A program made the position numbers and the translations under genes. The notes beneath the pieces were generated by a model. The model saw only the letters and a program-made list of their open reading frames with translations, did no database searches and had not been told where the DNA came from. Shown in pieces: positions 25,457 through 45,239 of a stretch of 64,000 nucleotides of DNA (positions are counted from its first letter, which is position 1; the number at the start of each line of letters is the position of its first letter). Origin of the DNA: Spirochaetia bacterium (GTDB lineage Bacteria > Spirochaetota > Spirochaetia > DSM-2461); assembly GCA_963666985.2 (NCBI GenBank), contig CAXXIA010000002.1:704001-768000 (forward strand). The letters are read 5' to 3'.

Positions 25457-26735
25457 AATGATCAGCACTTTCCCTTATCGAGGTGCTGGTTATGCCGTGG
25501 AAGGAGACCAATATTATGGACGTCAAATTCGAGTTCGCCCTCAAGGCCATGGATCCCCATGTCTGTATGAAAGACCTCTGTGCTGAGTACGGGATCTCCC
25601 GGCCGACAGGCCTTAAATGGAAAAACCGGTTTATCCAGGAAGGGCTCGCCGGGTTGAAGGAACGACCCCGTAGACCTCGCAGCAGCCCCAACCAAACGCC
25701 TGAAGACGTTATATGCGGTATTATCCGGATCAAGACGTTGCACAACTCCAGCTGGGGGCCAAAAAAGATTCTCGAGATCTACCAGAAGACCCATCCTCAT
25801 AATAATCCCCCAAGCCTCACCACCGTCAAACGCATCCTTGATAAAGCAGGACTGGTTCATCATCGAAAGAAACGGCAGCAGACCAAAGGCAGCCGAATCC
25901 AAACACATCTGCAGGCCAAAGCCCCTAATGATATCTGGACGGTCGACTTCAAAGGATGGTGGTACACTCCCGATAATGAAAAGTGTGAACCTCTGACGGT
26001 TCGGGATGAATACTCCAAATACATCTTCACCATCAAAGCTCTCCAAAAGGCTGACACACAAGAAGTTAGAACAGAGTTCGAAAAGCTCTTTTTTCTCTAT
26101 GGAATCCCTCGGGTAATCCGCTCCGATAACGGACCACCCTTTGCTTCCATGAAGGGATTACTCGGACTCACCCGCTTAAGTGTTTGGTGGCTGGCCTTGG
26201 GAATTGAACTTGATCGCATCACTCCAGGAAGGCCTTGTGAAAACGGAGGGCATGAAAGAATGCATGCCGATATCAAACGCGAATTGCAGGGACAGATTCA
26301 AGGGAACCTCTCAGAACATCAGGCACACTTTGATGTTTGGAGAAATCAATTCAACAGTGTTCGTCCGCATGAAGCTCTCAAAATGCAGACTCCCGGAAGT
26401 ATTTACACAAAGTCCAATCGGCCTTTCCCTCCTCGAATCCCTCAGGTGATCTACCCGGCCGGGTATCTGGTGAGAATGGTGAATAATCGGGGAGCCGTTA
26501 CTATCGACAGGCATAGAGTCTTTGTCAGTTATGTCTTTTCAGGATACCAAGTTGGACTTCGGGAGAATGAGGATGAGAGCTTCACCGTATGGTTTGACAA
26601 TCTCAGATTGGGAGAAATTGATTTGAAAACCTATGCCTTTCTCCCTTCAGTTGATGGATTCAAATGCTTCGTTTAAGCTTGTTTTGTGTAAACGATGTCC
26701 TGAACCTAAAATGTAAAGGATGTCCTGGTCGCTCA
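25395..26735 (+). mobile_element. IS481-family insertion sequence
   Basis: Inverted pairs GGTTCAGGACATCGTTTACAC (25399-25419 / 26686-26706) and ACCAGGACATCCTTTACA (25426-25443 / 26712-26729); ATGC on both flanks; left end uncertain by a few bp. Confidence 0.85.
25492..26676 (+). CDS. IS481-family DDE transposase
   Basis: MPWKE start, HTH, WTVDFKG, RSDNGPPF, NGGHERMH, RPHEAL. Confidence 0.92.
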   Translation: MPWKETNIMDVKFEFALKAMDPHVCMKDLCAEYGISRPTGLKWKNRFIQEGLAGLKERPRRPRSSPNQTPEDVICGIIRIKTLHNSSWGPKKILEIYQKTHPHNNPPSLTTVKRILDKAGLVHHRKKRQQTKGSRIQTHLQAKAPNDIWTVDFKGWWYTPDNEKCEPLTVRDEYSKYIFTIKALQKADTQEVRTEFEKLFFLYGIPRVIRSDNGPPFASMKGLLGLTRLSVWWLALGIELDRITPGRPCENGGHERMHADIKRELQGQIQGNLSEHQAHFDVWRNQFNSVRPHEALKMQTPGSIYTKSNRPFPPRIPQVIYPAGYLVRMVNNRGAVTIDRHRVFVSYVFSGYQVGLRENEDESFTVWFDNLRLGEIDLKTYAFLPSVDGFKCFV

Positions 26736-31816: not shown

Positions 31817-33010
31817 ATGATTAAAAAAGAAGAATTGAAATCCCGTATCGAAGAAATCAGCCAAAAATGTAAAGAAGCAGGCCTCGATGCTTTCGTCGTT
31901 ACATCCGGAGACAACCTGTATTATCTTACCGGGAAATCCATCATGCCGTTTGAACGACCCTTCATCCTGATTATTCCTTCTGATGGAGATCCTGTGTTCC
32001 TGGTTCCCCAACTTGAACTGGACCACCTGCGCTCTGGAATCCCTCATATTCAGATGTTTGAAACCTATTATGAATACCCCTCTCCAGCAGAAATCAGCTG
32101 GCCCGAGAAACTTAAAGAGCTAACGGCCGGATATAAAAAAATCGGAACTGATTTGTACACCCGCTCGGAAATCTTCAATGCACTTCAAGCCAACGCCCAG
32201 GTTCACCCCTTCAACTGGGTCTACAACCGAAGATTTGTTAAATCCGAAGCCGAAATCCTTATACTAAAAGAAGCATCAAAGTACATTCGCTCCTCCATGC
32301 TGGATTTCATCAAACACATCCGCCGGGGCGCAATAGTTATGGACACACTGAATCCGGCCAGAAAAACACAGAAGAAAGTCCTCATAGACAGGAAATTCAA
32401 CGTCGATTTTCTGGCCTACAACTTTCTTTCCGCCGGGTGGCCCGGAGCCCAAAGCGCCGAACCCCACAGTATTCCGAACCCCACCACACAATTCACGGAC
32501 GGTCCGAACGTAATGATTCTATCCTATAGGATCGATGGATATGCCGTAGAACTGGAACGAACATTCTTTACATCAGTCCCTTCAGAACTGGAAACAAAAC
32601 GCTTTCAGGATATGCTCAATGCCCGTCAGATCGCCTTTGCCATGTGCAAACCCGGAGCAAAGACCCATGATATCGATAAGGCCGCCCGGGATTATCTTAT
32701 CGCTCAAGGCTATGAAAAAAACATCATCCACCGCACCGGACACGGCATGGGCGTTTCCAACCATGAAGGCCCCTTCCTCGCCATCGGATCCGACACCATT
32801 CTGGAACCGGGAATGGTTCTTACAATAGAACCGGGAATCTACTTCAAAGGCCACGGCGCCTACCGCCATTCAGATACCATTGTGATAACCGAAGACGGCT
32901 ATGAAAACCTCACCGGCATCCCCACCGGATTGAACTTTCTCACCAGAACCCGCCCGGTCGGCCCGATTGACCGAATCAAGCGGATGGCAATCAATAGAAT
33001 CATCCGTTAG
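31817..33010 (+). CDS. Xaa-Pro peptidase family (M24) protein
   Basis: Creatinase/prolidase N-domain; HRTGHGMG, HEGP, TIEPGIY, RHSDT. Confidence 0.88.
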   Translation: MIKKEELKSRIEEISQKCKEAGLDAFVVTSGDNLYYLTGKSIMPFERPFILIIPSDGDPVFLVPQLELDHLRSGIPHIQMFETYYEYPSPAEISWPEKLKELTAGYKKIGTDLYTRSEIFNALQANAQVHPFNWVYNRRFVKSEAEILILKEASKYIRSSMLDFIKHIRRGAIVMDTLNPARKTQKKVLIDRKFNVDFLAYNFLSAGWPGAQSAEPHSIPNPTTQFTDGPNVMILSYRIDGYAVELERTFFTSVPSELETKRFQDMLNARQIAFAMCKPGAKTHDIDKAARDYLIAQGYEKNIIHRTGHGMGVSNHEGPFLAIGSDTILEPGMVLTIEPGIYFKGHGAYRHSDTIVITEDGYENLTGIPTGLNFLTRTRPVGPIDRIKRMAINRIIR

Positions 33011-33056
33011 CTCTTCTTCCTTTGGGCAAATTTTCCCGACTTCTGCGGGAAAAACA

Positions 33057-33262
33057 CGCTTTGCGGGATTCCGTCCCGGCGGCTACGCCGCCGGATCGCA
33101 AAAAGGGTTGTACCGCAGACGCAAAGCGTCGAGGAACATAACAGCCGTGCACCACAGCGTAGCGAAGAGCATGGCGAGTCTCCCGACACTGCGGCGCCCC
33201 TCCTCTCCCTAACGCAGTCGAGGGTTGTGGCCAAGTTTAACTTGGACATAACCGAGACAAGG
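33057..33262 (+). repeat. Structured non-coding element, copy A (unknown class)
   Basis: Shares ordered blocks with the reverse complement of 44974-45173; see findings. Confidence 0.75.
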
Positions 33263-33335
33263 CAAGGGAAATGCATAGGCATTATCCCTAACGTTTTAGG
33301 GACGCACCGCTGTTAATGTTCTTCGCTTCGGCCGT

Positions 33336-33722
33336 CTATCCTTGAACATGTTCCCGGACATAAGCTTGAAGCCGATGACATGTTTGCAGCATAAACGGAA
33401 TATCGTCCCGAGAAATCGGATTGGAAGGTTCCGCTTCCAGAGAGCAGAATCCCGATTGATAATCATCAAGATCAATTAGATTCTTCATAAGACCATCCGG
33501 AAGCGGAGCAACTTTTTCAAGACCGCTCGCCAAATCCCGAAAGGTGTGCCCTTCGGGCAGAACCGATTCCCTGAGCAATAAAGCCATACTCATTTTCTCA
33601 ATGGAGAGAGCCACCAAATTGAATAAAGCATCGGGGTTGAACTTCCCGGGCCGTTCATAACCGCCGCAAGCCGTTTTAAAGAAACTTCCGCCCTGCTCCC
33701 AATACGATTGCCAGTCATTCAT
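33336..33722 (-). CDS. Small HEPN-like protein
   Basis: 128 aa from ATG 33722 with GGAGGTG RBS; ALSIEK...PEGHT.L resembles HEPN EK..H pattern. Confidence 0.55.
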   Translation of the reverse strand: MNDWQSYWEQGGSFFKTACGGYERPGKFNPDALFNLVALSIEKMSMALLLRESVLPEGHTFRDLASGLEKVAPLPDGLMKNLIDLDDYQSGFCSLEAEPSNPISRDDIPFMLQTCHRLQAYVREHVQG

Positions 33723-33904
33723 TCTTACACCTCCCGGAAGCCTTTGCAAAAAGAAAGCAAAATCCATTCCGGGCAAGGAACCGACCTCTTTTACAGTCTT
33801 TTCACGGATGAAGATGAGGGAAAGGCACCTCGGGGTATCCTTAAAAGGATGTTTTTACATTTTCGTGAGAAATAAGCGGAGTAAAAAAAGACGCCTCGCG
33901 GGGA

Positions 33905-34420
33905 TCAACTCTCCCCTTTCAACAGCTCCCGTTCCAGAAACCACCGGACGGAACCGAAAGCGAACATTTCCATCTTCACATCCCGGCGGCTCAAAAATAA
34001 AACCTCCGAGACTTCATCTTCCTGGAGGGAAAACGGTCCGGAAACACATTCGGCTCTAAAGAATAAATCACAGGTTTTATAAACAATGCCCTTATAGGGG
34101 TATGTATTCGGCCGACTGGCGGCGTATTCGAGGGAAGCAAGCTCAACACCCAGCTCTTCTCTCAGCTCCCGGCGGCACGCTTCCTCGGCGGACTCATCCG
34201 GATCCACGAACCCGCCCGGAAGATCGAGGAGCCCGAGCCCGGGCTCCTTGGCGCGGCGTAAGAAAACGAATCGGTCATCCCGCTTCAGCAGAATACCGAC
34301 GGCGGAAGCAACGTTGTGATAATACGTAAAACCGCATTCGGGACATACGATTTTCCGTTCGGCGGGAAACTCCGGGGCCGGACGGCGGCATTGGGGACAA
34401 TACTTGAACATGGAATTCAT
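33905..34420 (-). CDS. NUDIX hydrolase with Zn ribbon
   Basis: CPQC/CPEC; Nudix box GGFVDPDESAEEACRRELREELG. Confidence 0.92.
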   Translation of the reverse strand: MNSMFKYCPQCRRPAPEFPAERKIVCPECGFTYYHNVASAVGILLKRDDRFVFLRRAKEPGLGLLDLPGGFVDPDESAEEACRRELREELGVELASLEYAASRPNTYPYKGIVYKTCDLFFRAECVSGPFSLQEDEVSEVLFLSRRDVKMEMFAFGSVRWFLERELLKGES

Positions 34421-34572
34421 TGTCTCTTGATTCGAAAGGACAAATCAAGGATGCGATCGGAAAAGATCGGTTTGAAATCCGCGCCCTTCTGGTTACACAC
34501 GGCGGCTTACACACGAAGCCGCGTCGAAGAAAAATCGAGGCGGCTCCGGCGTTTTTTCTCAAGGACGCACCG

Positions 34573-35553
34573 CTATAAGGCAAAAACCCCGGTTCGCAGC
34601 ATCTTCAGCATTTCCGTGGCGGAACCTGTTTCCGTTAAAGAATCCAAGGCTTCCCTGCCGATTTTTTCCACCAGCCGGGTATATAAATCCATGTAGAGGA
34701 TGCTCTCCCGAACGGCTTCGAACTGATCTTCCCGGAAAGGGAAAATGTCCACGGAAATCCATCCGCCGTATCCTCGCTTATCCAGGATATGAAACATCTC
34801 CAGGAACTCAGGCAAACGGACCGAACCGACAATCATGTCGTCGTCCCATGTTCCGTAGTTGTCGTTGGCGTGAACATTGAACAAACGGCCCGCTTTCAGC
34901 GCCATATCCAAATCCCGAGCCATGTTTCCGCCGGCCAAAAGCGTATGCCCCACATCCACGGTCAAACCGAGATTGGTCCGATTCGCTTCGGCGCAAATCA
35001 GAAGAGCCGTGGGCACGGTATCCACCAGAGAACGATTCCGAGGTTCCCGAAGCTTCGGTTCCAGGGTAATCTTCACATCGGGCGCGTAATCACAGAGCTC
35101 TGTGACGCTTTCCAGAAACGCATCCCACTGCCGGGCGTAATCGGTTTGGAAGGGGTAATCGAATCCGTCCTGACCGGTCCAAAGATTATATCCGCCCGCT
35201 CCGACCGACCGGGCGAAATCCAGCCCCCGTTTGGTATCGTCAACAGCGTTTTTCCGAACAGCCGCATCGGAGGCCGAAAGCGATCCGTACATCCATTTTT
35301 GTTCTCCGTATAAGGAAGAATTCACGAAAGACGCCTTCAGTCCCGCCTCGCCGAGGAGTTTTTTGACGGCGATCTCATCGGATTCAACGCCGCCTTCGGT
35401 GGAAAAGCTCAATTCCACGCCGTCAAGAACGCCGATGTTCACCAAGGCGTCGATAATTTCTTCATAGGCGTAGGGACGTTTATACCCGCAACTCATATAC
35501 CTGTCGCAGATGTTGTTCAAAGATCCGGTGATGGTGCTGTACTTGTATTTCAT
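34573..35553 (-). CDS. Xylose-isomerase-like TIM barrel sugar isomerase
   Basis: WTGQDGFDY, EPKLREPR, DVGH, HANDN, DDD, DIFP. Confidence 0.82.
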   Translation of the reverse strand: MKYKYSTITGSLNNICDRYMSCGYKRPYAYEEIIDALVNIGVLDGVELSFSTEGGVESDEIAVKKLLGEAGLKASFVNSSLYGEQKWMYGSLSASDAAVRKNAVDDTKRGLDFARSVGAGGYNLWTGQDGFDYPFQTDYARQWDAFLESVTELCDYAPDVKITLEPKLREPRNRSLVDTVPTALLICAEANRTNLGLTVDVGHTLLAGGNMARDLDMALKAGRLFNVHANDNYGTWDDDMIVGSVRLPEFLEMFHILDKRGYGGWISVDIFPFREDQFEAVRESILYMDLYTRLVEKIGREALDSLTETGSATEMLKMLRTGVFAL

Positions 35554-35657
35554 TTAAATTCCTTTCGGTGGCGTCTTTCGAGAACCGCCCTTATGAAAAG
35601 TCGCATAAGATTCCGGGATTCACTCACCCCGGATTGAACGGGCGGTTCCGTTTGTTC

Positions 35658-36524
35658 CTATTCGCTCATCAGCCCCCGAACGAAGGCAACCGATTTCTTA
35701 AGATTTTCATCCATCAAGGAAGGATTCATAAGAGGACGATATAAGCTTACGGCGGAGCCGACTTCGCCTCCGGGCTTCACGAAAGGTTCCATGGTAATGG
35801 GCCCCCGGTAGTCCGCGCCTTTGAGCGCCGAGAAAATATCCTTCCACGGCATGGTTCCCAAACCGGGGAATTTTCGGTTGTTTTCACCGATATGGAAATA
35901 GCCGAGGCGTTTCCCGGCCGTGAGAATGGCATCAACCTGGGAATCTTCTTCGATATTCATATGGAACGTATCCAAATGAATACCGATTTGAGGCGAACCG
36001 ACCTCATCAATATATTGAATCGCCTCGGCGCAGCTGTTGACCAGGAAATTCTCGAAACGATTCACCACCTCGACATTGAACTTCACGCCATGATCGGCGA
36101 AAGCCTTGGAGGCTTCCTTCATGCTCTTCACGCTGATATTCCAGCGTTCGCTCTTTTCTTTATAATCCTGAATCCGCCCGTTCCAAGCTCCGTGAACAAT
36201 GCCGCTGCATGAGGGAGCTCCCACCTTTTCCATGGCGGCGGCCAGTTTGATCAGGAAATCCAGACCGGCCTTCCGAACGGAGGAATCGGCGGAACTCACA
36301 TCCAGTTCCACGGGGAGTCCCAAACTCATCGCCAATAAAACGCCGTTGTCTTCCGCCATGGCCTTGAATTCGGCGATGGCCGCATCATCCATTTCCACAA
36401 GCCATGCGGCGCCGAACTCCAAGAGATCGAAACCCAGGGCTTTAGCCTTCGGAATCAAATCTTGTTGATTTTCCATCCAGTCGGTTACGAAACAGCCGTA
36501 ATGGATACCCAGAGGATTATTCAT
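35658..36524 (-). CDS. D-psicose/D-tagatose 3-epimerase family protein
   Basis: EVVNRFE, HLDTFHMNIEE, HIGENNRKFPG, MEPFVKPGGEVG; start ATG 36524. Confidence 0.85.
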   Translation of the reverse strand: MNNPLGIHYGCFVTDWMENQQDLIPKAKALGFDLLEFGAAWLVEMDDAAIAEFKAMAEDNGVLLAMSLGLPVELDVSSADSSVRKAGLDFLIKLAAAMEKVGAPSCSGIVHGAWNGRIQDYKEKSERWNISVKSMKEASKAFADHGVKFNVEVVNRFENFLVNSCAEAIQYIDEVGSPQIGIHLDTFHMNIEEDSQVDAILTAGKRLGYFHIGENNRKFPGLGTMPWKDIFSALKGADYRGPITMEPFVKPGGEVGSAVSLYRPLMNPSLMDENLKKSVAFVRGLMSE

Positions 36525-36628
36525 TGCTCGATTCTCCTTTTCTTCTCTCATTTCTCATTTGCGTGTATCGAAAGGCGGCGATGCCGGCGGAGTCCTGGGA
36601 CGAACAAAACGCCCCGAGAGGAATGCCG

Positions 36629-37852
36629 TCAGATCTTCCGCCAATCCTCGACGGCCAAATCCGGATTACCGGCGCCGAAATGTTTCAGAATAACCAGATC
36701 GTCACAGGGCGAATTGTTTGTAATTTCAACACCTTCTTTAGCGGCCTGCTCGCCGACGAAATATTCATCAAGAGTCAGCTGACCGAATCTGATCAACGCC
36801 GGTGTTTCCACCGGATGTCCGCCGAAGGAACCATGTCCCTGAACCACGTACATTCCGTAAGCCGCCGCATCTTTAATAACGACGCTGCGGCCGGGTTCGA
36901 CGGTCAGCTCTTTGGCGCTGATGGCCTCGCTCTTATAGCAGATCCAATTTTCGCGGTATCCGTCCATCTCTTCGGAAGCTTTTACCGGTTTCGGAGCCAT
37001 GAAGTTATGCTCGTGAAAAAGAGGATCCACATTGAGTTCCCAATCGATTACTTCAACGAGGTAGTCGAAGTTTCCCATTTTATCTTCGGGAGTATTCTTC
37101 CACAGAAGCGAGGAATCGATAATCTGATGATTCACCAAAGACTGGTACATGGCATAAACATCGGAAGCCATTTGAGGCTCGTAAGTACACAGACTTCCCG
37201 GCGCGTGAAGCACTCCGGGATGAACGTTCCAGCCGGTTCCCGGAACAAGACGATACGCCGGGGCCAAATCGGTAATATGATTATCCCCTTTGGTGAAGTC
37301 CATTAAAGCCTTCTTCACCTCTTCCCTGGTGGTTTCGGGATTCAGACCGAAGAACGTATACGGGAAATCTCCGCCGTGATTGTTCAGTTGGGGCGGAAAA
37401 TAATAAGCCTCGGGCTTTCCCATCTCGCCGACCAGAGCGGCATGCTCATCTCCATGATGAATATGATGCGGCAGCGGCCCTTTATTATCGAAGAATTTGG
37501 AAAACATCGGCCATTTGCCGTAGGTGTTCCACAGACGATCGCCGATAAGAGCGCCCTTCAGTTCATCCACCGCATCCCTGAGAAGGAACTGCTCCGTTTT
37601 GCCGCCGTCTTCGAAAACAACGAAACTCAAACCTTCATTTTCACCGGTTTCCGGACCGTTGTCCGCCGGAGTCGTGGAGGAAAACCACCTTTCGTCGATT
37701 CCGCCCCGGTTTCCGCCGAGAGCATAGTAATCATCCGGATGGAGCTTGATACGCCGGCCGGGGATACAGAAGGAACGAGGAACCCAGTTGGGAACCAGCC
37801 TGAAGATGCCCCGCCCGGCATCGAATGCGTTGTGAATCGTATTTTTAGACAT
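36629..37852 (-). CDS. Cupin, class I phosphomannose-isomerase-like conserved protein
   Basis: GPLPHHIH, KPEAYY, HAPG, YEPQMASD. Confidence 0.7.
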   Translation of the reverse strand: MSKNTIHNAFDAGRGIFRLVPNWVPRSFCIPGRRIKLHPDDYYALGGNRGGIDERWFSSTTPADNGPETGENEGLSFVVFEDGGKTEQFLLRDAVDELKGALIGDRLWNTYGKWPMFSKFFDNKGPLPHHIHHGDEHAALVGEMGKPEAYYFPPQLNNHGGDFPYTFFGLNPETTREEVKKALMDFTKGDNHITDLAPAYRLVPGTGWNVHPGVLHAPGSLCTYEPQMASDVYAMYQSLVNHQIIDSSLLWKNTPEDKMGNFDYLVEVIDWELNVDPLFHEHNFMAPKPVKASEEMDGYRENWICYKSEAISAKELTVEPGRSVVIKDAAAYGMYVVQGHGSFGGHPVETPALIRFGQLTLDEYFVGEQAAKEGVEITNNSPCDDLVILKHFGAGNPDLAVEDWRKI

Positions 37853-37921
37853 ATGCCTACTCCTTAGAAATCCGTTGTAAGTATCATGGAACGCGAGAGA
37901 TTCCGCCTCTCACGATTCGTT

Positions 37922-38854
37922 TCAATCCCGGAGCCGGTCCAGAAGAACGGCACCGATTATAATCAATCCCTTCACGACCAGCTGAAAATAAGCCGAAATC
38001 CCCAGAAGATTCATACCGTTGTTAATCACGCCGATCAGCAGGGCGCCGACAAAGGTTCCCCAAATGGTGCCGCGGCCGCCCATCAGGCTCGTTCCGCCGA
38101 TAACCACCGCCGCGATAACGTCCATTTCATATCCGTTACCGGCGATCGGTTCCGCGGAATTAAGCCTTGAGGTAAGAATGAGGGAACTGATGCCGGCGGT
38201 CAGACCGGAGATTCCGTAAATAATCGTCTTGAAGAAAGGCGCATTAATCCCCGAGAGACGAACGGTTTCCTCGTTGCCGCCGATGGCGTAGGTGTAGCGT
38301 CCCAAACGGGTCTGATTCAGAATAAGCCAGGCCAATACCACCGATACGAAGAAAAGAATGATGGGAATGGGGATTCCCAGAACATAACCTCCGCCGAGCT
38401 TCCGGAATCCCTCGCTGAATCCCGATATGGGATACCCGTTGGTATAAATCATCGTCAAACCCCGGGCGATGCTCATCATTCCCAGAGTCACCACGAAGGG
38501 CGTAATCTTTCCCAGATTGATAATCAGCCCGTTCACCAGGCCGAAGAGGGTGCCCACCAACAAAGTACCGATGAAAACGGGAAGAGGACTCCATCCGGCT
38601 TTAAGCATTCCGGCGCAGGCAACGCCGGAGATGGCCACCAAAGACCCGACCGAAAGGTCGATACCGCCCGTGAGAATCACAAACGTCATTCCTACCGCCA
38701 TAATTCCGTAAATGGACGACTGCCTGACGACATTGATGATGTTCATTCCGGTAAGAAACACAGGAGAGAGAATGGAAAGGATGATGCACAGAACGAAGAA
38801 CGCGATCACGATCCCGTAGTTCTTCATGATGTACTTGATATCGGGCGCTTTCAT
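37922..38854 (-). CDS. rbsC: Ribose-type ABC permease
   Basis: GGIDLSVGS, LGRYTYAIGGNE, AAVVIGGTSLMGGRG. Confidence 0.85.
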   Translation of the reverse strand: MKAPDIKYIMKNYGIVIAFFVLCIILSILSPVFLTGMNIINVVRQSSIYGIMAVGMTFVILTGGIDLSVGSLVAISGVACAGMLKAGWSPLPVFIGTLLVGTLFGLVNGLIINLGKITPFVVTLGMMSIARGLTMIYTNGYPISGFSEGFRKLGGGYVLGIPIPIILFFVSVVLAWLILNQTRLGRYTYAIGGNEETVRLSGINAPFFKTIIYGISGLTAGISSLILTSRLNSAEPIAGNGYEMDVIAAVVIGGTSLMGGRGTIWGTFVGALLIGVINNGMNLLGISAYFQLVVKGLIIIGAVLLDRLRD

Positions 38855-40356
38855 GCGGTCGCTCCTTTTTCATGGAGGCCGAGGGAATATTCCATCACCT
38901 CTTCCTCACTTGCTTCGCCCTTGGCGAATTCCTTGACGATGCGACCGTCGTAGACGACTTCGATCCGATCGCTCATATTCATAATTTCCGTAAGCTCCGA
39001 GGACACCATGATGATTCCGGCACCGGCGGCGGCAAGATTCTGCATCAATTTGTAGATTTCCAGCTTGGCGCCCACATCGATGCCCCGTGTCGGTTCGTCA
39101 AAAATGTAAAGGTCGCAATCCCGAATAAACCACTTGGAAAGAACCACCTTCTGCTGATTGCCGCCCGAGAGGTTCTGAGCCTGCTGCTTGGTGGAAGGTG
39201 TTTTGATTGCGATGTCCCGAATAATCTTCTTAACCTTGCCGGTGATGATGCGGCGCTGGAGAAACCCGAACCGGGAATACTTATCAAGAACGGTGATGGC
39301 CGAATTGTCGAATAAGGACATTCCGAGAATCAGTCCCTGCTTCTTTCTCTCTTCAGGAATAAGACCGATACCCTGACGAACAGCGTCCCGCGGCTTCTTA
39401 ATCTTTATTTCCCGCCCCTTCATGAAGATTCTGCCCGCATCCTTTTTCCGATGGCCGTAGATCAGTTCCATAATCTCCGTCCTGCCGGCACCCACGAGAC
39501 CGGTGAATCCGACGATTTCACCGCTTTGCACGGTGAAATTCACGTTACGGCAGACTCCTTCTTTGGATAATCCTTCCACGCGCAGCATTTCGCCTTTGGG
39601 AACGTAGGAAGATTGGGGATACTGCTCGGTAAGCTGCCGTCCGACCATGTGTTTGATAATCTCATCGACGGTTAGTTCACCATACGGTTTCGTAATAATG
39701 CACTCGCCGTCCCGAAGAACGGTTACCCGATCGGCGACATGGCTGAGTTCTTCCAATCGATGGGAAATATATATAATCGAAACGCCTTTGGCCTTCAGGC
39801 CGGCGATAATTTCAAAGAGACGATCAACCTCGTTTCCGGTGAGCGGCGCGGTGGGCTCGTCCATCACCAAAATGTCCGATTTCAAAGAAATGGCTTTGAG
39901 GATTTCCACAACCTGCTGGAAGGCCGGACTGATGGTATACACCTTGGCCCGAGCATCCAGCTCAATATGGAACGACGCCATCAGTTCTTCCACATTGCCG
40001 TACATGGCTTTCCAATCGATAAGCCCGCTTGGATGGCGGGGTTCCCTGCCGAGGAAAATATTTTCGGCGATGGAAAGGTTGTTTACCAGGTTCAGCTCCT
40101 GATAGATCACGCTGATTCCGGAGGCCAGCATGTTTTTAAGGCCGCTGTTGGTTACATCCCGGCCTCTGAGTTCAATCCGTCCTTCGTCCGACCTGTACAC
40201 ACCCGAGAGTATCTTCATCAGTGTGGATTTTCCGGCGCCGTTCTCTCCCACCAAGGCATGGACTTCACCGGTATCGAGGTCGAAATTCACATTTTTAAGG
40301 GCTTTGACTCCGGGAAACGATTTCGTGATTCCCGTCATTTTCAGCAATGTCGACAT
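38851..40356 (-). CDS. rbsA: Ribose-type ABC ATPase
   Basis: GENGAGKST, LSGGNQQK, DEPTRGIDVGAK. Confidence 0.88.
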   Translation of the reverse strand: MSTLLKMTGITKSFPGVKALKNVNFDLDTGEVHALVGENGAGKSTLMKILSGVYRSDEGRIELRGRDVTNSGLKNMLASGISVIYQELNLVNNLSIAENIFLGREPRHPSGLIDWKAMYGNVEELMASFHIELDARAKVYTISPAFQQVVEILKAISLKSDILVMDEPTAPLTGNEVDRLFEIIAGLKAKGVSIIYISHRLEELSHVADRVTVLRDGECIITKPYGELTVDEIIKHMVGRQLTEQYPQSSYVPKGEMLRVEGLSKEGVCRNVNFTVQSGEIVGFTGLVGAGRTEIMELIYGHRKKDAGRIFMKGREIKIKKPRDAVRQGIGLIPEERKKQGLILGMSLFDNSAITVLDKYSRFGFLQRRIITGKVKKIIRDIAIKTPSTKQQAQNLSGGNQQKVVLSKWFIRDCDLYIFDEPTRGIDVGAKLEIYKLMQNLAAAGAGIIMVSSELTEIMNMSDRIEVVYDGRIVKEFAKGEASEEEVMEYSLGLHEKGATA

Positions 40357-40441
40357 GGCATTCCTATTTTAACGGACATCAGGGACCGGTGAATCAATTC
40401 CCGGTCCCCGACGTCATTTCATTTTTCTATCTACTCCGGTT

Positions 40442-41353
40442 TTACGGCATCGGCTTCGGGCTGATGTAAATCACATCCTTGGCGGGCTTTTCTCCCGCAG
40501 TGATGTTTTTATAGAGAACTTCCAGCGCCGTTCCGGCCTGCTGTCCGGGGAACTGGTCGACGGTCACGTCCAGTTTGCCTTCGTCGATATAAGCAAAGGC
40601 ATCGGGAGTGGCGTCGAAACCGACGGTAACGATACCGGAAGGATCGATGCCCGAAGCGGCCATGGCCTCGATGGCGCCGATGATCATTTCGTCGTTGGCA
40701 CCGAAGACGGCGTCGAAATCAGGATGAGCCTGAATCAGATTTTCCATAACGCTCTGACCTTTGGATCGGGAGAAGTCCGCGCTCTGGCTGGCCAGAATTT
40801 TCACTCCGGAACCGGCCATGACTTCATCGAAACCGGCTTTCCGGTCTATGGCCGCCGAAGCGCCCGGTGTGCCTTCCAGCTCAATAACCTTACCTTTTCC
40901 GCCGAGTGCATCAATGATGAACCGCGCCGCGGACCGTCCGCCTTCGACATTGTCGGCACCGACATGAATCAGAACTTTGTCGGTATTCGCCTTCCTGTCC
41001 ACGGTGGCCACGGGGATACCGGCGGCCACGGCGGCCTCGATGGCCGGAACTTGGGAATCGGTCGTAATGGGGGAAATCAAAATGCCGTCGACCTTCTGAG
41101 CGATGAAGTTTTCAATGGCGGCCATCTGATTGGACGATTGATTCTGAGAATCATGAATAATCAGCTTCACACCGAGCTCATCGGCCTTCTTCTGCGCTTC
41201 GTCTCCCATAATGACGAAAAACGGGAACTGCATTCCCGGTACGGTCATCCCGATGGTAATTACACCTTCGTCGCCCGCATCGGCACCGCCGCCGGCAAAG
41301 GCCATGGGAACGGCCAAAGCGATCAGACAGAGAACCGCGAGATACTTTTTCAT
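40442..41353 (-). CDS. rbsB: Ribose-type ABC substrate-binding protein
   Basis: FPFF, VDR, GADNVEGG, LEGTPG, NDEM, GFDA; start ATG 41353. Confidence 0.85.
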   Translation of the reverse strand: MKKYLAVLCLIALAVPMAFAGGGADAGDEGVITIGMTVPGMQFPFFVIMGDEAQKKADELGVKLIIHDSQNQSSNQMAAIENFIAQKVDGILISPITTDSQVPAIEAAVAAGIPVATVDRKANTDKVLIHVGADNVEGGRSAARFIIDALGGKGKVIELEGTPGASAAIDRKAGFDEVMAGSGVKILASQSADFSRSKGQSVMENLIQAHPDFDAVFGANDEMIIGAIEAMAASGIDPSGIVTVGFDATPDAFAYIDEGKLDVTVDQFPGQQAGTALEVLYKNITAGEKPAKDVIYISPKPMP

Positions 41354-41429
41354 GTCATTTCTCCTTTTTGGAATTGGTATTGGCCTCATTATCAGGGGCT
41401 GAATTCACACTTGTCAAGGAAAATATGGC

Positions 41430-41630
41430 ATCGTTTGCAATATCGTTTTCAGGATCATTTTTTCTGCATCCGAAATCAAGTTTCCTAAAATTAAATCGAT
41501 TCCATTTCCTTTTCTTATAAGTTTTTATCATTTATCAAGCGTAAATCATCAAAACATTGTTCATTGACAACGGCAAATCGTCATGATAACGTTTTTGCAA
41601 TCGTTTTCTTAACAATGGTAACGATATCCC
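41430..41630. promoter_or_regulatory. Divergent control region with LacI-type operator-like sites and lacI promoter
   Basis: TTGACA 41564-41569, 17 bp, TAACGT; CG-centred sites GATAACGTTTT, GCAATCGTTTTC, GGTAACGATATC, CAATATCGTTTTC. Confidence 0.55.
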
Positions 41631-41671
41631 GCATTAGGGTAAGATACATCAACGGAAGGAGATCGTTTGCA

Positions 41672-42673
41672 GTGGCATCCATGAAAGACGTCGCCAAAAT
41701 GGCCGATGTTTCGATATCCACGGTCTCCCGAGTTATAAGCGGCACTACTCCCGTAGATCCCAAAACCCGCAAACGGGTGGAACAAGCCGTACAGGCAACC
41801 GGATTTAAGCCGAATCTTATCGCTCGCGGACTCCGTGTAAAAAGCGCATCACTGGTGGGAATGCTGGTTCCGGAAATCCGGACGACGAGTTTTTCCATTC
41901 TTATCGAGCACGTGGAAACGGCCGTCGAAGCCTTGGGCTACAACCTGATATTGGGAGGAACCGGAGGTGATCCGGACCGTGAAGAGCGGTTTTTTGAGAA
42001 TCTGGTCCGGCGTCATATCGACGGCGTGATTGTTTCCTTGGTGTCCGATCACAGCCACCTTATGCACCTGATCGAGCGTACCGACGTACCGGTGGTTATC
42101 ATCGATCGGCCGCTGAAACACTATGCGTTTCCCACGGTGGTTATGGATAACCGCCTTGCCGGAAAAATGGCCGCGGAACACCTGCTCTCCCTCGGACACA
42201 AGAAATTCGCCTGCATTACGGGAGGATCCGACATCGGCATCTCCAGAGACCGGCTGGACGGATTTCGGGACGCGCTCGCCGATGCGGGGATTCTCCTTGA
42301 AAGCAAAGCGGTTGTCGACGGGAATTTCCAGTATGAATCCGGATATCGCTGCATAGACGCTTTATTGTCAAACGGCGCGGCCTTTACGGCACTTTGGGCG
42401 CAAAACGACATTATGGCCATCGGCGCTCTGAACCGGCTCAGAGAACACGGGATTTCCGTTCCCGGAGACGTTTCCATAATGGGCGTCGACAACGTGGATG
42501 ACGCCTGGATGGCGCGGCCCGCGATAACCACCATCGCCCAGCCGTACAAAGAGATTGCGCAAGTCGCGGCCCGTCTGCTTCACAGCATAAATCGGGGTGA
42601 AACTCTGGAAGAAAAATGGCTGACGCTTGCTCCCGAATTGGTCGTGAGGGAATCAACCGGAATCGCATCTTAA
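41672..42673 (+). CDS. LacI-family transcriptional regulator
   Basis: SMKDVAKMADVSISTVSRV; GTG start after AAGGAG. Confidence 0.93.
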   Translation: MASMKDVAKMADVSISTVSRVISGTTPVDPKTRKRVEQAVQATGFKPNLIARGLRVKSASLVGMLVPEIRTTSFSILIEHVETAVEALGYNLILGGTGGDPDREERFFENLVRRHIDGVIVSLVSDHSHLMHLIERTDVPVVIIDRPLKHYAFPTVVMDNRLAGKMAAEHLLSLGHKKFACITGGSDIGISRDRLDGFRDALADAGILLESKAVVDGNFQYESGYRCIDALLSNGAAFTALWAQNDIMAIGALNRLREHGISVPGDVSIMGVDNVDDAWMARPAITTIAQPYKEIAQVAARLLHSINRGETLEEKWLTLAPELVVRESTGIAS

Positions 42674-42706
42674 GAAAAAGGCCGCTTGGGCCGGGATAAG
42701 GAAACC

Positions 42707-43102
42707 ATGAAGAAAACCACGTTACTGAACGCACCGCTCTCCGGACTCATCGCGTCTTTGGGACATACGGATACCGTATGCCTCGCCGATGCCGGGCTGC
42801 CCGTTCCTCCGGGCCCCGCACGCATCGATCTTGCCGTCCGTCCCGGACTTCCCGATTTCAAAGCCGTTCTGGAAACCATACTTGAAGAGATGGAAGTGGA
42901 AGAAGTGATTCTTGCGGAAGAAATTCGGGAGAAAAATCCCGAGATTCATCAAGTACTGACTCAAAAGCTCAGAGGGATTCCCTTTACTTATGTTCCGCAT
43001 GAGGAATTCAAACGCTTAAGCGCGGGAACGAAAGCCGTCGTCAGAACCGGAGAATGCACGCCGTATTCGAACGTTATCCTCCGTTCCGGAGTTGTTTTCT
43101 AA
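42707..43102 (+). CDS. rbsD: D-ribose pyranase
   Basis: LGHTD, DAGLP, RIDLA, HEEFK, VRTGECTPYSN, GVVF. Confidence 0.95.
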   Translation: MKKTTLLNAPLSGLIASLGHTDTVCLADAGLPVPPGPARIDLAVRPGLPDFKAVLETILEEMEVEEVILAEEIREKNPEIHQVLTQKLRGIPFTYVPHEEFKRLSAGTKAVVRTGECTPYSNVILRSGVVF

Positions 43103-43185
43103 AAACAACCCGGCTCGATAAAAACAACCCGATTCCCCATGCCTCCGTTCCGCGATAAGCGGTTTTCAGCCGCTTTACCGAATTC

Positions 43186-44793
43186 TCAGGACTTTCTTTT
43201 CAACAGAGAGGCCCATTGAAATTTCTTTACCTGAAACCTGCCGAAAGAAGAAACTAAATAATAGAATAAAAAGAACGTCGTATAACCTTCCCACAGTAAA
43301 TTCATCAAGGCGTTTCTCATATCATACTTAATCGCAGTCAAGAACGTCTGAAGCATTAAGACTGAAAGAAAACCGTAATATAGAATAGGAATTAAGTTTA
43401 TACTCAGATTCTCCTTATGATTATTATATTCCGACAGGTTTAAGGCATTTGAGATGATTTTGGAATATACATTAATCAAGAAAATTAGAATTACAAAAGA
43501 AACAATCCTGAAACTTTGCACATTGTAATTGGAAATCAAGAAGAAATCATACACTCCGTGTAAAATCATTGCCGCGAGGAAGGTCGGTATAACATACAGC
43601 CCGATTCCTTTATATTTTTTCACAAACAAACCATAAACGGACAAAGAAGTGAGTGCCATGTGCAGAACGACGGCGCTTAACGCTCTGGAATTGATATTGG
43701 ACAGACCCAACTCGTTAAAATAATGCATATTTTCTATTGTCGCGAAGCCCAAAGCACCGAGAGAAGCATAGATTATGAAATCCACGGATTCATTCATTTC
43801 TTTTAAGGCAAATAAAACAACTAAAAATGGAATCAATTTCACCAATTCTTCAATAAACCCAATGCAAAACACGGAATAAATCAAATCATTCACTAAAGAT
43901 CCGGAAAGATGAAACTTAAAATAGATATGCCAGATATCATAGAGAATACTGGAGAGGAACGCGGAAATTATTCCCAATAGAAAAGTGAAGATGAGAATGG
44001 ATATCCGATCTTTCTCAAACACATCAATTTTATGGAAGAAGAAGATCCATACGGCTGAAATGAGTATACCGGCGATAAAACCTTCCGGGATAATGTTCCT
44101 AAAAAAATCAAGAAATCTCTCGGCTAAATAACTGAAATATTTTTTCTGAATCAGCGTATATCGTATAAGGATATTTGACGAAATGTATTTAAGGGATTCT
44201 TTGTTTGACAACAACTTGTCCAGCTCGGCGTATTGTTTCGTGGAAAACAGAAGTTTCGACAAATTGGAATATGCTCCGCTCACATTTCCGCGAATTTCAA
44301 TCTCCTTATAAAAATATTTCTTGGCGGCATCGGCTTGATCCGTTTGGAGATAGATGTAACCAATTGAATTATTAACATAAGGAATCTTTTCATCGTTTAT
44401 TTGAAGATAAAAAGACAATGCGCTCTCAAAATCATAGATTTTGACATAATAAAACCCGATGCAGTAGAGAATAATATCTCTATATTCGGGTTTTGTAATA
44501 AGATAATCCTGATATTCCTTCAGAATATCTTTATCGCTTCTGCTGCTATACTTTGATTTCGACGAGAGAATACTGAAATAATTATTAATATAACCTCGAT
44601 GCAATTCCACATTGCCGAAATCATCGGCTAATAATCTTTTGTATTCTTTTTCCGCAATGAAATATCTTTTGGTTGCAACGGCATTTTTAATGATTTCTTC
44701 AGACGATTCGGAATGAGAAAAACGGTCGACCAGCAGGATTAAAACCAACGTAACCAATAATGCCGAAACGGTAACAAAAAAATACTTTCTCAT
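43186..44793 (-). CDS. TPR-like domain + PrsW-family intramembrane protease; AT-rich
   Basis: IEELVK, LGFATIEN, HMALT, HGVYDF; helical-repeat N-half; start ATG 44793. Confidence 0.82.
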   Translation of the reverse strand: MRKYFFVTVSALLVTLVLILLVDRFSHSESSEEIIKNAVATKRYFIAEKEYKRLLADDFGNVELHRGYINNYFSILSSKSKYSSRSDKDILKEYQDYLITKPEYRDIILYCIGFYYVKIYDFESALSFYLQINDEKIPYVNNSIGYIYLQTDQADAAKKYFYKEIEIRGNVSGAYSNLSKLLFSTKQYAELDKLLSNKESLKYISSNILIRYTLIQKKYFSYLAERFLDFFRNIIPEGFIAGILISAVWIFFFHKIDVFEKDRISILIFTFLLGIISAFLSSILYDIWHIYFKFHLSGSLVNDLIYSVFCIGFIEELVKLIPFLVVLFALKEMNESVDFIIYASLGALGFATIENMHYFNELGLSNINSRALSAVVLHMALTSLSVYGLFVKKYKGIGLYVIPTFLAAMILHGVYDFFLISNYNVQSFRIVSFVILIFLINVYSKIISNALNLSEYNNHKENLSINLIPILYYGFLSVLMLQTFLTAIKYDMRNALMNLLWEGYTTFFLFYYLVSSFGRFQVKKFQWASLLKRKS

Positions 44794-44930
44794 GGAAACA
44801 TTATGAATAAAGTCTCTGGAAATGTTTATTACTTTTTCCGGTTCGGCTGCGGCTCTCACTTCGCGGAAGCGAGACCTGAGGTTGTTCTTCCGCTCGTTCG
44901 GCATCAGCCAAAACATCCCGCTTTGGCTGA

Positions 44931-45041
44931 TGATCTCGGCTGCGAAAGCGATAACTCTTTCGGAGTACCGCGTCCTTGCCTCGGCACTATCCGATAAAGC
45001 TCCGCTTTATCATCTGCTGATCTCGGCTGCGAAAGCGATAA
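44931..45041. repeat. 24-bp exact direct repeat x2, 87-bp period
   Basis: TGATCTCGGCTGCGAAAGCGATAA at 44931-44954 and 45018-45041. Confidence 0.9.
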
Positions 45042-45173
45042 GAGGGGCGCGGCGGCTGTGTCCGTTCGGCGGAGCCGAACCGGACTACCGGAATCGTTCC
45101 TCGGGCGTTTCCCTGCGGTACGACCCTTTTTGCCGTATGCGCAAAAAAGCGCATATGGAACTCCCGCAAAGCG
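44974..45173 (-). repeat. Structured non-coding element, copy B (unknown class)
   Basis: Reverse complement shares ordered blocks with 33057-33262. Confidence 0.75.
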
Positions 45174-45239
45174 CGGCGCTCCGGCTTCGAGCCGAAACGG
45201 CCCGCGAAGCCGGAACAATCGTCCCTAAAAAACGATCAG

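Follow-up and report, generated by a model that had tools for sequence, protein, structure and literature searches.

The locus and its two composite repeats

Two inverted structured repeats, A and B, lie in the window analyzed here (the whole stretch of DNA, 64 kb in length), with a sugar cluster and a gene for a prsW-like protease between them (Table 1). A first-pass annotation had described them as two copies of a single, unrecognized element of approximately 200 nt, in which named sequence blocks are kept in order while the stems are swapped. All of those blocks and swapped stems are present at the coordinates it gave, and the copies start, as it said, shortly past the stops of co-oriented genes (47 and 67 nt). 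The 21-nt core common to both, at 33098-33118 (plus) and 45113-45133 (minus), has no other match in the window with three mismatches allowed, and none in 100 shuffled sequences. Hairpin 3 of A also exists, but its stem as originally drawn would leave a 1-nt loop; the corrected form has a 6-bp stem and a 3-nt loop.

The number, extent, and unity of the copies need revision. Both stacks run further than was thought, A covering about 33021-33293 and B reaching from 45174 or beyond to about 44832, and the genome holds approximately 18 copies of the module that we call E1 as well as eight shells. In place of a single element we find a mosaic, the parts of which also occur separately and carry mini-hairpin loops on opposite strands. 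Each copy consists of stacked hairpin micro-elements, 40-90 bases in size, within a scattered repeat, the shell, of Flavo-1 type; A and B are the only two of the eight shells of the genome to hold both E1 and E4. A pattern specific for the A/B block arrangement found no locus in metagenomes, a second such pattern found one locus in which the other blocks proved absent on inspection, and copy A had no BLAST match among plasmids and phages.

Table 1. Features of copies A and B and of the region between them (positions in the window)
Feature	Position	Strand	Remark
A: outer flank and first shell hairpin	33021-33057	-	Matches flank of the empty shell at G000 C2:2111371; precedes the start first assigned
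A: shell arm (Flavo-1-type 3' arm, minus) and variable hairpin 1 (33076-33094)	33058-33099	-	
A: E1 with 21-nt core and hairpin 2	33100-33188	+	Halves 33100-33137 and 33178-33188, with E3 between
A: E3, nested 40-nt module within E1	33138-33177	+	Most of what had been called a variable segment
A: shell arm (Flavo-1-type 5' arm, minus)	33194-33215	-	One base disrupts the 2-bp stem
A: E4, 78 nt, hairpin 3 and another hairpin	33216-33293	+	
Sugar uptake and catabolism cluster, 8.8 kb	34403-43210		Missing from related strain
prsW-like membrane protease gene	43186-44916	-	Adjoins B; likely start 44792; context, outside the element
B: second E4-like module (44884-44941) and hairpin tail (44832-44880)	44832-44941	-	Past the end first assigned
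B: E4, 87 nt	44942-45028	-	Exact 13-nt repeat of shell end: 45029-45041 = 44942-44954
B: shell arm, GCG/CGC subtype	45029-45050	+	Compensatory to GGG/CCC subtype
B: E1	45059-45131	-	Different 26-nt hairpin (45064-45089) nested close to 3' end
B: shell arm and variable hairpin 1 (45136-45156)	45132-45174	+	Shell on plus in B

The earlier inference of selection on a single-stranded fold is borne out by compensatory pairs in the shell and in E1, and the GNA triloops indicate that this fold is probably one of DNA. Compared with shuffled sequences, RNA folding gave z scores of -2.7 (A) and -2.4 (B), and DNA folding of the extended A gave -5.2 and -4.1 on its two strands. The suggested TTCC/GGAA pseudoknot can be rejected, since it pairs bases of two independent modules and the shell side varies (GGA, GCA, GAA, or GTA) while the E1 side is invariant.

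The 33.3-44.9 kb interval had been read as cargo between inward-pointing ends. In a related strain, compared through one contig each from runs X3 and X5 of one sample, the missing segment is the sugar cluster, which lies inside A and B; since that strain retains A and the start of B without the cluster, A to B is not a cargo unit. The strain's alignment breaks within both A and B, and at B its gap is 163 nt shorter than in the window, near the combined length of E1 and E4 (160 nt). The prsW-like gene is low in GC, has a close homolog in none of 40 relatives, and is about 80% identical in the related strain over 43211-44115, against 96-98% elsewhere. A role as gene-insertion point finds loose support, and only at B, which adjoins this foreign-looking gene. 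Among the ORFs between A and B (eight of them scanned) no transposase or integrase was seen, and the joints listed for four runs of contigs, which drop rare variants, include none produced by excision at A or B (87 more fall outside the list). A MITE or composite transposon, for which one would expect terminal inverted repeats, target duplication, and cargo travelling with the ends, was considered and set aside: E1 has no consistent duplication, and A and B do not form the borders of the variable segment.

The shell and Flavo-1

The shell folds on the strand opposite to that originally annotated, minus in A and plus in B. Empty shells occur at C2:463956, where E4 is absent, and at C2:2111371; the shell at C1:756716 holds E4 only, and two others (L048 and L055) hold E1 only. 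These empty and partly filled shells establish a modular make-up. In an alignment of 32 pattern-selected rows, 13 of which come from one genome, 98.4% of 256 cells in the outer fold are paired, three of eight pairs change on both sides, and none of 500 shuffles attained the score; paired bases covary, and the apical hairpins are free. Pooled third codon positions around nine shells and four weak Flavo-1 matches gave no sign of a mutation shadow. A CGC-GNA-GCG hairpin stands on the strand opposite E1's loops in 33 of 53 shells, and the variable arm of some shells is occupied by hairpins that we read as GTAG-like. The distribution is patchy, with bursts: the shell arm was found in 19 of 301 genomes of the class, two of which have 29 and 25 copies.

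The element was unrecognized in the sense that no Rfam family matches A or B at cut-off, nor does anything relevant appear with E values up to 5, but its backbone shares an outer shell with Flavo-1 (RF01705; Weinberg et al. 2010). The two share 3 bp, an A-G mismatch, 2 bp, a 3x3 purine loop, and a stem, and the shell ends correspond to one flank type of the published alignment (PMC2864571), the GCG/CGC subtype included. Genome G090 has a genuine Flavo-1 (51.8 bits) between the same flanks that enclose the shell. They differ inside: the shell has a GNA mini-hairpin and a variable hairpin where Flavo-1 has a long U/A-rich stem, the AUCC/U-run consensus of that stem is absent from the shell, the shell's inner motif has no match in the published alignment file, and the shell here carries nested inserts. 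With membership set at a covariance-model score of at least 42 bits, the Flavo-1 model found no match on A or B and no shell among the 20 loci scored; the best score in the genome, among the 150 of 892 candidates scored, was 30.1 bits, away from A and B. The literature searched, which takes in a minority of subscription papers, describes neither the modules nor Flavo-1 as mobile DNA.

Modules E1, E3, and E4

E1 is 41-46 nt long, contains the 21-nt core, and occurs in 9 of the 301 class genomes. It is inserted in both orientations, within genes as well as within other repeats. In rarA it forms a 42-nt in-frame antisense insert that is absent from all eight parsed homologs (nine fetched), and among IS91-like genes 4 of 36 aligned loci carry it, all at a single codon junction; it also lies inside two IS66 genes, in rRNA spacers, and after tRNA-like 3' ends, in tandem arrays. 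The four interrupted IS91-like genes are close to synonymous saturation (pS 0.74-0.92; pN 0.10-0.18), and their monophyly was not rejected (AU p 0.18, 2000 replicates). Junctions in rarA and the IS91-like genes are precise, overlapping by at most 1 nt, and there is no consistent target duplication. The 3' end is fixed (G in 42, C in 35, and A in 33 of 43 copies) and at the 5' end 3-5 nt are variable; the junction base counts of these 43 copies reveal no CGTC or GTAG tag.

Of 63 E1 loops, 43 are GNA triloops, three are GNRA, and none is UUCG, and on E1's other strand only one of 63 reads as a GNA triloop. Mini-hairpins of the type GCGNAGC/GCGNNAGC have a far higher stability in DNA than in RNA (PMC13037366), and we take these loops to suggest that the form recognized is single-stranded DNA. 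A conserved bulged base is retained across genomes and, with the precision of insertion, argues for recognition by a protein. Twelve E1 copies lie on the leading and six on the lagging strand, without clear bias, and the E1 pattern found nothing in viral contigs.

E3 is found at the same position of E1 as in A at C2:1505387 and C2:2201663, and within E1-like pieces at C1:543941 and C2:2633723. E4, 78-87 nt in size, ends by repeating 9-13 nt of the target in which it lies: in A, 33285-33293 copies the shell end 33206-33214, and at C1:756716 and C2:1503410 there are 12-nt repeats of the respective hosts. The same insertion sites have been reused repeatedly.

Possible mechanisms and related systems

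We suggest that E1, E3, and E4 are micro-elements at fixed sites of the shell that spread as folded single-stranded DNA through an enzyme acting in trans, and we would give this reading a probability of about one half. The modules would leave as small single-stranded circles and join exposed, folded single-stranded DNA at short matching sites; joining would leave no repeat in the case of E1 or a host-matched repeat of 9-13 nt in that of E4, sometimes with tandem arrays. A and B would be alike because each module goes to the same site, local common ancestry probably helping. The enzyme may be of the HUH class, and an IS91-like Y2 transposase is the best local candidate.

The genome has no Y1 transposase and no Y2 transposase detectable by Pfam, by which the control was also silent; a single broken IS91-like remnant was found, about 2 Mb from A and B. 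The two repeats are not ori and ter ends of an IS91-family element, a Y2 gene being absent near either. Among genomes of the order, IS91-like remnants occur in 6 of 9 E1-positive and 8 of 29 E1-negative ones, in counts that are small and from kin that are not independent. Y1 transposases were found in one of the nine E1-positive genomes, neither E1 nor a complete shell was found beside 22 Y1 loci, and no cognate Y1 transposase flanked by the repeat was found, most of the genomes searched being incomplete. Neighboring genes are unrelated, with no recurrent family apart from transposase hosts among 60 ORFs by E1 loci or 89 of the 96 ORFs picked by shell loci. The genome also has one GIY-YIG match, in a 618-aa frame. 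Several observations weigh against our preferred reading: no mobilizer was found, no excision joint is listed, there is no clear strand bias, and the variable 5' end of E1 and the repeats of E4 would also fit retroposition.

No dedicated enzyme would be needed if the modules arose by template switching or gene conversion through short homologies at hairpin-stalled forks. Such events would account for the swapped apical hairpins, the tandem arrays, and the host-matched repeats of E4, and for our not finding a mobilizer nearby, but they fit poorly with the precision of E1 in rarA and the IS91-like genes and with its conserved bulged base, and we regard this explanation as unlikely. Somewhat less probable still is retroposition, in which modules would be transcribed and then reverse-transcribed into nicked targets, in the manner once reportedly proposed, as an RNA route, for the SDRs of cyanobacteria. 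The fixed 3' and variable 5' ends of E1, its sites after tRNA-like 3' ends and in rRNA spacers, and the direct repeats of E4 are what this process might leave; the loops, however, are of DNA type, the distribution of reverse transcriptases does not follow that of E1 (they occur in 6 of 9 genomes with E1 and in 17 of 29 without it, and genomes that have 10-12 reverse transcriptase matches show no E1 match), and the only one found in this genome is that of an St85 retron.

A functional ncRNA or ribozyme of about 200 nt, on the strand of the original annotation, is very improbable. The RNA folding scores and the position of both copies directly past co-oriented genes speak for it, as does the filing of Flavo-1, since 2010, as a probable RNA without function (PMC2864571); yet the parts of A and B occur separately and fold on opposite strands, their combination recurs neither in the metagenomes nor in the other six shells, and Flavo-1 matches in F. 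psychrophilum lie sense or antisense, frequently outside transcribed regions (PMC9723704). That the 33.3-44.9 kb region moves as a unit, with A and B serving as its ends or as recombination sites, is largely refuted: their inverted arrangement, the features that they share and other copies in the genome do not combine, the alignment breaks in both, and the divergent prsW-like gene by B would suit it, but the missing segment is bounded approximately 1.1 and 1.6 kb inside the stacks, no transposase or integrase was seen among the ORFs between, and two of eight shells would fall within 12.2 kb by chance with a probability of 13%.

Returning to spread as folded single-stranded DNA, a bolder version is quite doubtful: that Flavo-1-type shells and E1-E4 constitute an undescribed micro-transposition in which an HUH enzyme writes cassettes of 40-90 nt into folded DNA. 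The enzyme could possibly be the IS91-like transposase itself, with cassette ends matched to the target, and a cassette beside HUH-coding codons may be removable, in which case interrupted transposase lineages would have stayed active and these would be the smallest excisable, target-adapting mobile elements known. We know of no mechanism for very small mobile repeats. Several modules are represented at this locus and elsewhere in the one genome by sites both filled and empty, by exact junctions, and by targets used more than once, so that short oligonucleotides and candidate HUH enzymes should permit a direct test of the mechanism. A process able to place 40-90 bases at particular sites, lengthening a conserved protein by 14 codons and disabling transposases, would shape spirochete genomes and could serve as a tool. 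As a caution, an "RNA motif" that shows covariation may turn out to be a stack of mobile DNA.

The closest known systems are Flavo-1, the SDRs of cyanobacteria, RPEs, and REPs. The SDRs that Elhai et al. are said to have described in 2008 are very small, structured, site-specific, and nesting, and by that description E1 and its companions stand beside them; E1 differs in being about twice as long (by the sizes SDRs reportedly have), in being spirochetal, and in its DNA-type loops. RPEs, which are longer than E1, resemble it in their in-frame insertion in a conserved gene, here rarA, and in having no dedicated transposase. SDR5 inserts precisely in HIP1 (PMC4390886), and CGTC repeats have been reported in Spirochaetes (PMC3733652); unlike RPEs and CGTC repeats, E1 ends without a CGTC or GTAG tag and returns to fixed positions within other repeats. 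REPs and REPINs are also non-autonomous hairpins in mosaic arrays, and movement as single-stranded DNA by a transposase in trans has been proposed for them (PMC3116915), although here there is no RAYT in the genome or beside the repeats, no GTAG end, and no doublet arrangement. A and B differ from IS91-family elements in not flanking a transposase, E1 lying inside the transposase gene at the loci examined, yet E1 and related inserts have lodged repeatedly in IS91-like genes. The features by which very small mobile repeats of the SDR or RPE type are judged, namely precise filled versus empty sites, nesting, and patchy distribution, are all found here.

Composition of copies A and B

The first-pass annotation described two inverted copies, A and B, of one structured element of about 200 nt. 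Their shared blocks and exchanged stems are present at both places as it said, the likeness of the 21-nt cores far exceeds chance, and a check against Rfam gave zero matches on either copy. It is the unit that does not hold: the blocks belong to separate elements, namely a dispersed Flavo-1-type backbone repeat (the shell), a 41-46-nt micro-element carrying the core (E1), a 40-nt module (E3) and a module of 78-87 nt (E4). The proposed pseudoknot would join bases from two modules, with the shell side free to vary, and the "variable segment" is two unlike things: E3, which is nested in E1 of copy A and also found at other sites, and in copy B a different, 26-nt hairpin. E4 consists of the 3′ blocks and hairpin 3, has four sites in the source genome (G000) and is missing from empty shells. 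At its terminus every E4 repeats the end sequence of the host in which it sits (exact over 13, 12 and 12 nt; 9 nt in copy A), and the helix arm preceding that repeat differs between A and B in step with it. Since only A and B have E1 and E4 together, local common ancestry of the two, added to site preference, is suggested.

The shell comprises the copies' 5′ block, hairpin 1 and the GCGCCCCTC block. G000 has eight shells with both arms, and the conserved arm occurs in 19 of 301 genomes of the class, two of which hold 29 and 25 copies. Read on the other strand from that first described, the outer part of the shell matches Flavo-1 in architecture. Among 32 chosen shells, 98.4% of cells are paired, with both-sided changes in three of eight pairs, and none of 500 shuffles, nor any slid control, reaches the pairing score; because the rows were picked by pattern and 13 come from one genome, this is support and not a significance test. 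In one genome (G090) a true Flavo-1 (51.8 bits) lies between the same flanks as a shell, and the published Flavo-1 alignment (PMC2864571, supplement 5) has the same ends. Outer architecture, flanks and ends are alike but the interior is not, and A and B give no score with the Flavo-1 model; the shell is therefore a sibling of Flavo-1, in which membership fails by score. E1 lies at the GNA mini-hairpin of the shell in A, B and two further loci (L048, L055). In one genus (L113-L117, L132) a GTAG-REP-like hairpin makes up the variable arm of the shell. Two shells lie within MITE-like elements that end in short inverted repeats, and G000 carries further abundant non-coding repeat families genome-wide (top 11-mer, 93 non-genic and 0 genic copies).

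A and B had also been read as inward-facing ends of a cargo. A related strain, represented by contigs from one sample (runs X3 and X5), is 96-98% identical in the flanks. There 34402 is joined to 43211 with 100 other bases in between, so that the sugar cluster is missing; copy A, a pair of small genes, the prsW-like gene and the beginning of B are kept, which largely rules out A to B as a transposed unit. The chance of two of the eight shells falling within 12.2 kb is 13%. The related-strain alignments stop inside both A and B. The prsW-like gene, only about 80% identical to the related strain's over the aligned part, has low GC3 (2nd percentile) and no close homolog among 40 relatives; copy B possibly marks a point of gene exchange. 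Directly before copy A, an M24 peptidase gene has high C and an extreme third-position G/(G+A) of 0.32, a ratio that ranks it among the lowest 0.3% of the contig's 716 lagging-strand genes. The cause could be strand bias inherited from a donor, or mutation acting locally; pooled shells have no such mutational shadow. The related strain retains a 146-aa ORF that follows copy A and has no Pfam or NCBIfam match.

Coordinates of the features (window positions unless a contig, C1 or C2 of G000, or a locus is named; the window covers C2:704001-768000)
Feature	Position	Remark
M24 peptidase gene	31817-33010	
Copy A	~33021-33293	
146-aa ORF	33336-33776	
Sugar cluster	34403-43210	
prsW-like gene	43186-44916	minus strand
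Copy B	~44832 to at least 45174	inverted
IS481-family transposase	25483-26676	
Empty shells	C2:463956; C2:2111371	
Shells with MITE-like surroundings	C2:463956; C1:756716	
Doubtful E1	C2:1370959	inside a gene
rarA with E1	C2:2647423-2649705	L175
rRNA spacers with hairpin modules	C2:267200; 270958; 274698; 1051550	
Apparent 23S 3′ end/5S duplication	near C2:267000	
Retron	L269:3122-5039	
Other IS91-like hairpin inserts	L046, L023, L029, L030, L097, L086, L197, L209, L210, L214, L221, L222	

Insertion of E1

Where the first-pass annotation had two cores to compare, a profile of the 21 nt finds 18 in G000 at E<0.01, one of them doubtful; the reversed genome gave one match, of E 0.89. Of 38 genomes from the order, 8 contain an exact E1 pattern, and a looser version is present in 9 of 301 genomes from the class; 35 of 36 core-bearing loci lie in records titled Spirochaetia.

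Filled and empty sites define the boundaries of E1. In rarA it lies antisense and in frame, adding exactly 14 codons to an otherwise open, full-length gene, and is missing from all eight parsed homologs (nine fetched). Among 36 aligned loci of IS91-like transposase genes (domains Y2_Tnp and Zn_Tnp_IS91), four carry E1 as a 41-46-nt insert, each with a different hairpin, at a single codon junction just 5′ of the stretch that encodes HUH. E1 is also found within two IS66 genes, in rRNA spacers, and in tandem arrays (one of three 228-nt units, the other of three units of 41 nt) directly 3′ of tRNA-like 3′ ends at L234 (genome G099) and L023; we read the preceding sequences as probable tRNA 3′ ends. 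At L040, an antisense E1 seems to break an IS3-like orfA. The 16S-23S and 23S-5S spacers of G000 host E1-like and other hairpin modules, and a 23S 3′ end/5S segment is apparently duplicated.

The 3′ end of E1 is constant, its first 3-5 bases vary, and its junctions lack a consistent target duplication. Some compensatory changes are seen in the base stem: among 56 copies one pair is G-C in 50 and T-A in 4 (three from one tandem array), and another is C-G in 54 and T-A in 2.

Folding strand and proposed mobilization

GNA triloops close 43 of 63 E1 copies (GNRA 3, UUCG 0) and occur on E1's other strand in only one of the 63; in 33 of 53 shells it is the opposite strand that carries such a triloop. 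From this placement, shell and E1 appear to fold on opposite strands in A and B, which disfavors a single transcript spanning either copy. PMC13037366 gives GNA-type mini-hairpins much higher stability as DNA and places them at ssDNA origins and N4 promoters, and PMC9723704 reports no link of F. psychrophilum Flavo-1 matches to transcript orientation.

The modules are separable, insert precisely and repeatedly in both orientations, and conserve structure. They would travel as ssDNA substrates, through circular intermediates, with an enzyme acting in trans. HUH enzymes (IS200/IS605, RAYT, IS91) act on folded ssDNA without target duplication. This behavior, described in PMC3116915 and PMC3733652, favors an HUH-type mobilizer, to which we give about an even chance (roughly 0.5). 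Counting against it, no intact HUH candidate was found in G000, and Y1 genes neither track with nor adjoin the repeats. IS91-like remnants occur in 6 of 9 E1-positive versus 8 of 29 E1-negative genomes, an association that is suggestive only. Reverse transcriptases (RTs) do not track E1; the local one in G000 belongs to a retron (St85-type RT and effector pair). The pair adjoins an IS481-family transposase equal in length, and apparently identical, to that in the window.

The four E1-interrupted IS91-like copies diverged under purifying selection despite inserts that cause a frameshift or introduce a stop codon, implying up to four independent hits or a tolerated old insert. Three form a group with 90-96% bootstrap support, and the data do not reject a single origin (monophyly) for all four, the second tree having kept 21 of 32 rows after long or poorly aligned ones were dropped. 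At least three bear other lesions, which favors independent E1 hits on dead or dying genes. Spirochaetia IS91-like genes carry several other families of 32-53-nt hairpin inserts, some at the same positions across genomes.

Relation to known repeats

Identity as IS91 ends fails for the copies and modules, as does membership among MITEs or, for the modules, REP-RAYT systems. A literature search of limited coverage yielded no description of these modules. Cyanobacterial-type SDRs behave much as E1-E4 do. The modules resemble RPE/CGTC repeats and REPs in behavior and are set on a Flavo-1 sibling backbone; copies A and B are a variant of a known but unexplained class of repeat.
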